From NCBI GenBank assembly GCA_040143965.1, contig JASJQH010000078.1, positions 1 through 33,114 on the forward strand: a stretch of DNA of 33,114 nucleotides, written 5' to 3'. The notes beneath the pieces were generated by a model. That model searched no databases and had not been told where the DNA came from. It saw only the letters and a program-made list of their open reading frames with translations. Position 1 is the first letter of the stretch. Every line of letters starts with the position of its first letter. A program made the position numbers and the translations under genes. This DNA comes from Basidiobolus ranarum (taxonomy: Eukaryota). Below, one piece after another: positions 30,756 through 30,978 of this stretch.

Positions 30756-30821
30756 GTACAATTGGACGGTTCCGCATGAAGATGATCTCTTCGGAGGGGT
30801 TCAACTCCCTTTATTGTACCA
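30756..30821 (+). ncRNA. tRNA-like element E1 (not a canonical tRNA)
   Basis: Acceptor-like stem GTACAAT/ATTGTAC, D-like hairpin TGGA-CGGT-TCCG, middle arm TGAAG-ATGATCT-CTTCG, T arm GAGGGG-TTCAACT-CCCTTT. Perfect B box GGTTCAACTCC at 30798-808. Confidence 0.6.
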
Positions 30822-30822
30822 C

Positions 30823-30913
30823 AGACTAATATGATGAACTATGTAAAATCAAAAGGCTTAACCATTGAGATGACTTCGGTCATCGTTGATACTTTGATTG
30901 TTCTGATCAGTCT
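30823..30913 (+). ncRNA. Box C/D snoRNA (#2)
   Basis: Terminal stem AGACT/AGTCT, perfect C box ATGATGA 30831-37, D box CTGA 30903-06. An internal GATGAC-TTCG-GTCATC cUUCGg hairpin sits between putative D' (TTGA) and C'. A T8 run follows at 30925-32. Confidence 0.82.
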
Positions 30914-30932
30914 ATATTGCTATATTTTTTTT

Positions 30933-30978
30933 GCATCTGGGTGGTCCCAATTCTTCAGGTTCGATTCCTGAGTTGTGC
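30933..30978 (+). ncRNA. tRNA-like element E2 (D hairpin plus T arm, no anticodon arm)
   Basis: GCAT...GTGC closing pairs, TGGG-TGGT-CCCA hairpin, TCAGG-TTCGATT-CCTGA T arm with a perfect B box GGTTCGATTCC. Confidence 0.55.

Follow-up and report, generated by a model that had tools for sequence, protein, structure and literature searches.

The locus considered here lies in a non-coding intergenic stretch of ~800 nt within a 33,114-nt stretch of Basidiobolus ranarum DNA, the whole of which was analysed and is termed the window. Downstream, the gene for the large subunit of RNA polymerase I begins at position 31500. Four features follow one another on the + strand: a tRNA-like element termed E1 (30756..30820), a box C/D snoRNA candidate termed snoRNA2 (30823..30913), a run of eight T residues (T8, 30925-30932), and a smaller tRNA-like element termed E2 (30933..30978). 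Reading of the sequence confirmed that every feature listed in the initial annotation is present where it had been placed. E1 and E2 are 160 nt apart on the same strand, one on each side of the snoRNA2 candidate. Only 2 nt separate the 3′ end of E1 from the terminal stem of snoRNA2, while the T8 run, a candidate terminator for RNA polymerase III (Pol III), lies 12 nt past the 3′ strand of that stem. E2 starts 19 nt past snoRNA2, with its G+1 directly adjoining the T8 run. Minimum-free-energy folds reproduced the structures of E1, snoRNA2 and E2, and these were kept when the entire 258-nt stretch was folded together.

Two further snoRNA candidates reside on the + strand nearby. Upstream, snoRNA1 (30596..30673) is a box C/D candidate resembling SNORD36 (U36), which scores 20.9 bits against an Rfam gathering score of 30. 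The guide before its internal D′ box, GAATTTCTTC, agrees with the SNORD36 family consensus, its fold has a z-score of -2.77, and it is enclosed by an external stem formed by an inverted repeat (I12; 30584-30595 with 30675-30686). As read from the sequence, snoRNA1 is held by an apparent intron with GTAAGT at 30559-30564, TACTAAT at 30713-30719 and TAG at 30730-30732, and E1 begins 23 nt past the apparent 3′ splice site. Downstream, a weak third candidate (snoRNA3, 31020..31125) was found by a relaxed C/D descriptor. It carries TGATGT at 31031-31036, CTGA at 31110-31113 and a 10-bp stem (31020-31029 with 31116-31125), and its fold has a z-score of -2.13; no match to Rfam C/D families was obtained at E values up to 10. 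When the guides of all three candidates were compared with E. coli 16S and 23S rRNA, they yielded only G-U-rich runs of 9-12 nt. Short direct repeats, for example TTGTACTAATTT and TTGTGCTAATTT, also occur in the region. Tandem duplication of a unit consisting of a snoRNA plus spacer was considered and rejected, as local alignments among four such units gave p values of 0.08-0.9 (200 shuffles each).

The snoRNA2 candidate has the hallmarks of the box C/D class. Its C box, ATGATGA (30831-30837), conforms to RUGAUGA and its D box is CTGA (30903-30906), and a terminal stem of 5 bp, within the 4-5 bp of the class, is formed by AGACT (30823-30827) and AGTCT (30909-30913). An internal UUCG hairpin is located around 30869-30884. 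A strict C/D descriptor finds this candidate, with 0.8-1.6 matches expected by chance per window. The initial annotation had anticipated that Rfam would return a C/D-like fold and no full tRNA. Rfam reported no tRNA at gathering scores, and four C/D families matched snoRNA2 weakly at 14-20 bits, all under their gathering scores, among them the Z13/snr52 family at 14.1 bits (gathering score 47). A separate canonical intron around snoRNA2 is unlikely, as the only candidate GT sites upstream of it, GTACAA, GTTCCG, GTTCAA and GTACCA, do not resemble those of the neighbouring gene, namely GTAAGT, GTAATT and GTTAGT.

E1 is a 64-nt tRNA-like cloverleaf followed by a discriminator C at 30820. Its 7-bp acceptor stem is fully paired (GTACAAT, 30756-30762, with ATTGTAC, 30813-30819), and is followed by a D hairpin of 4 bp with a CGGT loop (TGGA-CGGT-TCCG, 30763-30774), an anticodon-like arm of 5 bp with the 7-nt loop ATGATCT (30777-30793), and a T arm of 5 bp (AGGGG-TTCAACT-CCCTT, 30795-30811). 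The four arms together comprise 21 bp, three of them G-U pairs, without a single mismatch. E1 has a paired G+1:C, U at position -1 and GG in the D loop, and its T loop, TTCAACT, supplies the equivalents of T54-psi55-C56-R57-A58. In canonical tRNAs the D loop has 7-11 nt and the variable region at least 4 nt, U is found at position 33 and a purine at position 37. The acceptor stem, the TTCRANY T loop and the GG of the D loop are those of a tRNA, whereas its abnormal features are a D loop of just 4 nt, a variable region of a single nucleotide, and C where position 37 would be. The claim that these elements lack a normal anticodon and variable region calls for one correction in the case of E1: an anticodon-like stem-loop is present, with a loop that reads A-U-GAU-C-U. 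Rfam gave a weak match of E1 to tRNA-Sec at 19.9 bits (E value 0.12 over 261 nt), under the gathering score of 47. By folding energy alone E1 is not significant (z-score -1.17).

E2 is more reduced, with 46 nt recognized from sequence, fold and descriptor. An acceptor stem of just 4 bp (GCAT, 30933-30936, with GTGC, 30975-30978) encloses a 4-bp D hairpin with a TGGT loop (TGGG-TGGT-CCCA, 30938-30949) and a T arm (30954-30972) in which 6 bp close the loop TTCGATT. Thus E2 has a tRNA-type T arm and the GG of the D loop, the latter again of 4 nt, and is without an anticodon arm. All 14 of its pairs are intact. Its folding energy alone is likewise not significant (z-score -0.95), and an Rfam search with E values up to 10 returned no match to it.

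The two elements share a 4-bp D stem capped by a YGGT tetraloop. Compensatory stem differences between them had been proposed, and the sequences bear this out: 7 of the 13 comparable pairs differ, five by changes on both sides and two through a G-U change, and none is broken. A MAFFT alignment of E1 and E2 was not structural and was left unused. Both elements are also rare in the window. Exact matches to GGTTCRANYCC occur twice on its two strands (66 kb), once in E1 and once in E2. A T-arm descriptor (a 5-bp stem with a TTCRANY loop) likewise finds two sites, which are E1 and E2, against a mean of 0.45 in 300 first-order Markov randomisations. If a D hairpin is also required, the random mean falls to 0.013, with at least one site in 4 of the 300 randomisations, and a closing stem of at least 4 bp brings it down further, to 0.0067 per window; both of these added parts were composed after E1 and E2 had been seen. 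When every 64- and 65-nt window on both strands was folded, cloverleaf-type minimum-free-energy structures were found for E1, its complement and two other loci (18478 on the + strand, at -2.8 kcal/mol, and 32501 on the - strand). The features, the folds and their rarity within the window are direct observations from this analysis.

No tRNA gene was called by ARAGORN at default settings anywhere in the window, nor did Rfam report a match there at gathering scores. With relaxed settings (-ps80), ARAGORN proposed an 89-nt model ending at E1, but this was one of 10 matches in the window and we regard it as noise; its mitochondrial modes gave noise only. Neither E1 nor E2 is a decoding tRNA. A metagenome scan that combined a B box and a C box with a 9-mer of the snoRNA2 guide returned four loci, all unrelated and at chance level. 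None was accepted as an orthologue: in two of them ATGATGA follows tRNAs of bacterial type, and the other two are coding contigs nearly identical to each other. A homocitrate synthase of 92% identity nevertheless indicates a paralogous contig. A 61-codon open frame (30786-30968), used as a protein query for related contigs, gave no candidate.

The failure of both elements to be called as tRNAs, the loss of a whole arm from E2, and the frequent clustering of tRNA genes and their relics would suit an interpretation in which E1 and E2 began as tRNA genes or as a tRNA-derived repeat and are now decaying, functionless remnants beside a snoRNA gene. So would the lack of significant sequence similarity between E1 and E2, and between either of them and the spacers nearby. 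However, neutral decay should break stems, and yet all 21 pairs of E1 and all 14 of E2 are intact. The same unusual YGGT D loop of 4 nt is found in both, all elbow nucleotides are retained, and the elements adjoin snoRNA2 or the T8 run within 0-2 nt. Moreover, the remaining 33 kb of the window carries no further copy of either, degenerate ones included. We consider a relic origin improbable. If E1 and E2 were unexpressed relics, the finding would be an ordinary one.

Each element carries an exact B-box match, GGTTCAACTCC in E1 (30798-30808, ~15 nt upstream of snoRNA2) and GGTTCGATTCC in E2 (30958-30968). Two perfect B boxes, 160 bp apart and intergenic, could bind TFIIIC and act solely at the DNA level, as an ‘extra TFIIIC’ or boundary site that insulates the snoRNA host from the polymerase I large-subunit gene. 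For such a role a B box alone would suffice, and the 7-bp acceptor stem, the GG-containing D hairpins, the shared orientation and the exact abutment on the snoRNA ends would go unexplained. We hold this explanation to be very improbable.

Taken together, the evidence from this one locus suggests that two non-decoding tRNA mimics probably either drive transcription of snoRNA2 or excise it from a precursor. The earlier proposal had offered RNase Z and RNase P punctuation or a Pol III promoter as alternatives. The anatomy fits both, and we rank the Pol III leader higher. For RNase Z, the relevant geometry is that the 3′ end of E1 falls 2 nt 5′ of the snoRNA2 terminal stem; for RNase P, that G+1 of E2 is immediately 3′ of the T8 run; and for a Pol III unit, that E1 has a perfect B box and that a T8 run stands 12 nt past snoRNA2. 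We consider it rather likely that E1 serves as an RNA-level processing handle that sets the 5′ end of snoRNA2, irrespective of the polymerase used. The polymerase, the sites of cleavage and any role of E2 are what we infer, from a single locus.

The reading we favour, with confidence somewhat short of even, is that a single small transcription unit extends from E1 through snoRNA2 to the T8 run, with a tRNA-like leader, a snoRNA and an oligo-T terminator as its parts. The B box of E1, together with its shortened, A-box-like D hairpin, would recruit TFIIIC and Pol III. Transcription would start just 5′ of E1, proceed through snoRNA2 and stop at the T8 run. In the transcript, E1 would fold to give an acceptor/T-arm stack with an elbow between the GG of the D loop and the T loop. 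RNase P would trim the 5′ end of E1, and RNase Z would cut past its discriminator, between 30820 and 30821, to leave snoRNA2 with a 5′ extension of 2 nt. The U-rich 3′ trailer would then be trimmed back as far as the snoRNP. In this scheme E2 would be a second, more reduced copy of the module, which may head the next unit or may be an RNase P site or a TFIIIC site. We place the Pol III leader above two-sided punctuation. Plants, yeast, C. elegans and Drosophila all provide documented examples in which a tRNA-derived leader drives a snoRNA that ends at oligo-T (PMC2527325, PMC2566860).

Several observations weigh against the Pol III leader. The A-box match in E1 is poor: in the D-hairpin region, TGGACGGTTCC, equivalents of T8, R9, G10 and GG are retained, and the region falls ~3 nt short of the A-box consensus. 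T8 runs are frequent in this neighbourhood. Of the four runs of at least T8 on the + strand of the window, three fall within this ~800-nt intergenic stretch, and the chance that such a run lies no more than 20 nt from the end of snoRNA2 is about 0.08, which is not negligible. TTTT is absent from 30679-30924 and present, at 30619, inside the intronic snoRNA1, but a TTTT-free stretch as long as this is unremarkable, as 20% of the gaps between successive TTTT in the window are at least 185 nt. If the unit stops at the T8 run, E2 is left unexplained, and snoRNA3, the possible partner of E2, is without Rfam support, while snoRNA2 itself is under all Rfam gathering scores. Finally, because E1 begins only 23 nt past the apparent 3′ splice site of an intron of the Pol II type, a Pol III unit here would share sequence with a Pol II exon.

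The main rival reading is a Pol II polycistron with tRNA-style punctuation. A non-coding host transcript would start near 30480, snoRNA1 would be released from its intron, and the remainder would carry E1, snoRNA2 and E2, from which cleavage by RNase Z after E1 and by RNase P before E2 would free snoRNA2. The region resembles a Pol II host, with a pyrimidine-rich start, the GTAAGT...TACTAAT...TAG series around snoRNA1, and an exon that runs into E1. In addition, the correct ends of both mimics face snoRNA2, and E2 is given a clear role. E2 retains the acceptor, D and T domains, which are those described as needed for RNase P-type recognition, the anticodon domain being dispensable (PMC3858429). 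Because the T8 run adjoins G+1 of E2, RNase P cleavage would give the product a tail of eight U residues that terminates in a 3′-OH, a good end for La binding. However, the E2 acceptor stem has 4 bp, which gives 10 bp when stacked on the T stem as compared with 12 bp in tRNA, and the T8 run requires a speculative role. A direct part for RNase P in the maturation of intronic snoRNAs in yeast has been proposed and is disputed, according to PMC9351541, and no natural case of a nuclear snoRNA cluster freed by such cuts emerged from our literature search. On balance we consider such a polycistron possible but unlikely. Somewhat more doubtful is its fuller form, in which an early-diverging fungus would possess a nuclear ‘tRNA punctuation’ system whose mimics flank snoRNA2 in a Pol II transcript for release by RNase Z and RNase P. 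We hold with similar reserve that this system would take the place of splicing or RNase III, and that the cut between the T8 run and G would generate an oligo-U 3′-OH end that recruits La-type chaperones.

The favoured Pol III leader can be compared most directly with the plant tRNA-snoRNA genes, exemplified by the tRNA-Gly/snoR43 dicistron (Kruszka et al., 2003; cited in PMC2566860, PMC3858429, PMC2780460), in whose processing RNase P is described as acting first and RNase Z second (PMC3858429). This arrangement was termed plant-specific in 2009 (PMC2780460). In both cases a tRNA-shaped element is followed on the same strand by a snoRNA directly 3′ and then by a T run, with no T run inside the unit at our locus, and RNase P and RNase Z are the expected nucleases for the tRNA part. 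Unlike the plant genes, the fungal locus has no genuine tRNA upstream: E1 is a non-decoding mimic accepted by no tRNA caller, and a second mimic, E2, follows the snoRNA.

As tRNA-like elements at the 3′ ends of MALAT1 and NEAT1, mascRNA and menRNA provide a parallel for E2. E2 is likewise a small non-decoding mimic placed where RNase P cleavage would create the 3′ end of the upstream RNA. It differs in having no anticodon arm, and the RNA upstream is a snoRNA instead of a long non-coding RNA, with no triple-helix element evident. Among the Rfam matches to 30735-30995 at E values up to 10, none was to a family of the mascRNA/menRNA type.

Partial mimics are also known from other genomes. Plant mitochondrial t-elements are described as partial tRNA mimics that function purely as cleavage signals for RNase P and RNase Z (PMC3858429), and in Haloferax volcanii a tRNA-like structure upstream of 5S rRNA is reported to act as such a signal (PMC2566860). 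Our elements resemble these in that a partial mimic, comprising an acceptor stem and T arm and in some cases a D domain as well, stands beside another RNA. The t-elements are organellar and the Haloferax volcanii case is archaeal, however, whereas the contig with E1 and E2 is fungal, of nuclear type, and carries spliceosomal introns. If E2 acts at the RNA level, the locus would represent a nuclear case of punctuation-type processing and a natural counterpart of the engineered arrays in which guide RNAs are spaced by tRNAs. The two elements would then also offer very small substrates (46 and 64 nt) with which to define the recognition needs of fungal RNase P and RNase Z. The initial annotation knew of no described fungal counterpart. 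Nor did our literature search find a fungal snoRNA with a folded, non-decoding tRNA mimic on each side, but the general strategy is a known one.

This general strategy is seen in the Pol III snoRNA genes with tRNA-derived promoters. Expression of snoRNAs from tRNA-derived leaders has been suggested to be ancient (PMC2527325). The UM2 type of C. elegans is described as a tRNA-derived leader with A and B boxes that drives snoRNAs ending at oligo-T, and snoRNAs of Drosophila with B-box-like elements and yeast SNR52 have been described as well, with both the A and the B box of SNR52 being required in vivo (PMC2527325). As in SNR52 and UM2, a B-box leader (here GGTTCAACTCC, one of the two exact matches in the window) lies upstream of the mature snoRNA, the unit would end at oligo-T, and the leader would later be removed; the A-box match of E1 is weak for this type. 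The leaders of SNR52, RPR1 and Zod1 are reported to allow no tRNA-like fold (PMC2566860), in contrast to E1, which is a complete cloverleaf adjoining the snoRNA. The plant leader is a real tRNA, and that of SNR52 is unfoldable and retains only the promoter boxes. Between them, E1 would be a missing intermediate, non-decoding yet fully folded, and positioned for RNase Z to make the 5′ end of the snoRNA.

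The two tRNA-like elements E1 and E2 lie on either side of a box C/D snoRNA candidate (snoRNA2) within a non-coding stretch of ~1.7 kb, which is flanked on one side by a minus-strand ORF that ends near 29811 and on the other by the plus-strand gene encoding the largest RNA polymerase I subunit, with its ATG at 31500. The contig is eukaryotic, and its introns are of the spliceosomal type. E1 (30756-30820, plus strand, as are snoRNA2, the T8 run and E2) has a perfect 7 bp acceptor stem (GTACAAT/ATTGTAC), a D hairpin (TGGA-CGGT-TCCG), an anticodon-like arm whose 5-bp stem closes the 7-nt loop ATGATCT, a variable region reduced to one nucleotide, and a T arm (AGGGG-TTCAACT-CCCTT); an unpaired T and the discriminator C complete the element. 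Two bases past the end of E1 begins snoRNA2 (30823-30913), which carries a terminal stem (AGACT/AGTCT), a C box (ATGATGA) and a D box (CTGA); twelve bases 3′ of it is a run of eight T residues (T8, 30925-30932). E2 (30933-30978) starts at the base right after this run and consists of an acceptor stem of 4 bp (GCAT/GTGC), a D hairpin (TGGG-TGGT-CCCA) followed by a 4-nt connector, and a 6-bp T arm with the loop TTCGATT. Inspection of the sequence located each feature listed in the initial annotation at the coordinates given there. The statement that neither element has a normal anticodon region holds, with the qualification that E1 retains an anticodon-like stem-loop with U at the equivalent of position 33.

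As predicted with ViennaRNA, the minimum free energy (MFE) structure of E1 is a cloverleaf and that of E2 a three-way junction, and both folds are kept when the entire 258-nt stretch is folded. Their fold energies are ordinary (z-scores of -1.17 for E1 and -0.95 for E2), as is often the case for RNAs of tRNA size. It is the motif content that is exceptional: on its two strands together, the window has just two copies of GGTTCRANYCC, one in each element. Similarly, a T-arm descriptor drawn from general tRNA knowledge (5-bp stem, TTCRANY loop) identifies only E1 and E2, compared with a mean of 0.45 sites over 300 first-order Markov randomizations of the window. Adding, on the upstream side, a hairpin of 4 bp with GG in its loop lowers the random mean to 0.013, and further adding a closing stem of at least 4 bp lowers it to 0.0067, although the significance of these last two figures is somewhat overstated because both criteria were designed after E1 and E2 had been seen. 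Arithmetic from the a priori T-arm rate gives an expectation of ~5 in 10,000 for same-strand T-arm pairs within 160 nt. When all 64- and 65-nt windows on both strands were scanned for cloverleaf-type MFE structures, the scan returned E1 and its complement plus two further loci, neither of which has a T-loop motif and one of which is very weak. The observation of E1 and E2 is confirmed, and the likelihood that their arrangement originated purely by chance is negligible.

E1 and E2 are not decoding tRNAs. ARAGORN found no tRNA genes in the window and no Rfam match there reached its gathering threshold, as anticipated by the initial annotation, which expected no full tRNA match. Within a search space of 261 nt, the tRNA-Sec model (gathering score 47) gave E1 its highest score, 19.9 bits, and no Rfam family matched E2 even at this reduced size. 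Relaxed ARAGORN output, with 10 hits across the window, was discarded as noise. Canonical tRNA D loops comprise 7-11 nt, and the D loop is 4 nt in both elements. Moreover, the variable region of E1 is 1 nt long, its equivalent of position 37 is a C where a purine is expected, and the anticodon arm is absent from E2.

All 21 base pairs of E1 (3 of them G-U) and all 14 of E2 (2 of them G-U) are intact. In both elements U is retained at -1, G+1 pairs with C, the D loop carries GG, and the T loop has the nucleotides from which the tRNA elbow is built. They also share a feature foreign to tRNAs, a D stem of 4 bp capped by a YGGT tetraloop. Direct reading of 13 pairs in register (4 acceptor, 4 D and 5 T) revealed five changed on both sides, two altered by G-U change and none broken. 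This is a comparison of two sequences rather than a statistical test of covariation, and the differences would be trivial if E1 and E2 originated from different tRNAs. Taken with the shortened D loop common to both, the pattern of stem pairs nevertheless argues against neutral decay, and we consider it unlikely that the elements are non-functional relics. Neither E1 and E2, nor either of them and the neighbouring spacers, share significant primary-sequence similarity. The sequence TTGTRCTAAT(TT) recurs at an intron branch site (30710-30721), at the E1/snoRNA2 junction (30807-30830) and where E2 ends (30973-30984); no local alignment reached significance, and the recurrence may be due to chance. 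Owing to this motif, the 3′ end of E2 resembles a branch-point sequence, with a CAG downstream at 31008-31010.

A second box C/D candidate, snoRNA1 (30596-30673), is a weak Rfam match to SNORD36 (20.9 bits; gathering score 30), and its guide segment ahead of an internal D′ box agrees with the consensus of that family. It contains an internal TTTT, is bounded by a 12-nt external stem (30584-30595 pairing with 30675-30686), and is enclosed by an apparent intron (30559-30732) with GTAAGT at 30559, TACTAAT at 30713 and TAG at 30730-30732. A pyrimidine-rich region upstream (~30480-30558) could be a first exon, and these sequence features taken together suggest a non-coding snoRNA host gene. E1 starts 23 nt past the apparent 3′ splice site of this intron. 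A third C/D candidate (31020-31125) combines CTGA with a degenerate C box (TGATGT) and is closed by a terminal stem of 10 bp; it folds with a z-score of -2.13 and matches no Rfam C/D family. For snoRNA2, four weak Rfam C/D family matches (14-20 bits) were obtained, and the C/D descriptor yields about one chance match per window; it is a candidate snoRNA by virtue of its canonical boxes, its terminal stem and the nearby snoRNA1. A snoRNA target search against E. coli rRNA found nothing. Farther downstream, a homopolymer cluster (31227-31296) contains A9, 2 nt and T9 (a near-perfect palindrome, 31231-31250) and two A8 runs at 31272 and 31288; located just upstream of the RNA polymerase I gene, it is probably a promoter or nucleosome-free region. 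That gene appears to contain an intron in its 5′ UTR (GTAAGA at 31327, CATAG at 31484) as well as several short introns in the coding region, whose 5′ sites read GTAAGT, GTAATT and GTTAGT.

Two options had been proposed for this arrangement, and the anatomy fits them. We tentatively favour the one in which E1 is a Pol III leader and E1, snoRNA2 and the T8 run form a Pol III unit. E1 has a perfect B-box match, and there is no TTTT between 30679 and 30924. Conversely, its A-box match appears weak, such a unit would share sequence with exon 2 of the apparent Pol II host gene, and it gives E2 no clear function. T8 runs are common in the vicinity (three of the four plus-strand runs of the window fall in this ~800-nt region), and 20% of the window's gaps lacking TTTT equal or exceed the 30679-30924 stretch in length. 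That E1 and E2 are TFIIIC sites acting at the DNA level seems very improbable. The two-sided punctuation model, in which RNase Z at E1 and RNase P at E2 would release snoRNA2, accounts well for E2. An RNase P cut at 30932/30933 would set the 3′ side of the snoRNA2 precursor, leaving an oligo-U 3′-OH end because the T8 run abuts G+1. The model also agrees with the Pol II-like upstream context, and E2 has acceptor, D and T domains, missing only the anticodon domain, which one report describes as dispensable for RNase P-type recognition (PMC3858429). However, the E2 acceptor stem is short, our literature search found no natural nuclear snoRNA cluster processed likewise, and the proposed role of RNase P in yeast intronic snoRNA maturation is disputed, according to PMC9351541. 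We view punctuation as the main rival and as somewhat less probable than the Pol III unit. The two models are not exclusive: under either, RNase Z would cut at 30820/30821, just before snoRNA2, which we judge reasonably probable.

A metagenome scan for orthologues using the B box, the C box and the snoRNA2 guide 9-mer returned four loci, all unrelated, and a search with an open frame spanning the locus gave no candidate. Elsewhere in the window, a homocitrate synthase ORF (23128-24288, minus strand) shows 100% identity to a protein that carries a Basidiobolus ranarum annotation, with a 92% identical paralogue on another contig of the same species and copies of 91-93% identity in B. meristosporus, which points to duplicated or congeneric loci usable for comparison. 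An 897-codon open frame (20282-22975, minus strand) has no Pfam match with an E-value of 0.001 or lower.

Among the accessible portions of the literature, our search turned up neither a fungal snoRNA with folded, non-decoding tRNA mimics on its flanks nor anything about snoRNAs of Basidiobolus. If true, the two-sided model would represent a natural nuclear punctuation system, at a single locus. The general strategy of a tRNA-derived leader and an oligo-T end is already known. Transcripts of plant tRNA-snoRNA genes are cleaved first by RNase P, after which an RNase Z cut frees the snoRNA (PMC3858429); the C. elegans UM2 leader, a possible tRNA-gene remnant, drives uncapped snoRNAs with oligo-T ends, and B-box-like Pol III snoRNAs occur in Drosophila, as does SNR52 in yeast (PMC2527325). 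The layout of E1, snoRNA2 and the T8 run is that of these systems. Unlike E1, SNR52-type leaders yielded no tRNA-like fold in a Yarrowia study (PMC2566860), whereas the upstream element of the plant genes is a real tRNA, which E1 is not. The structure at the E1-snoRNA2 locus is genuine and well positioned, and could be a link between the types of Pol III snoRNA gene seen in plants and in yeast.
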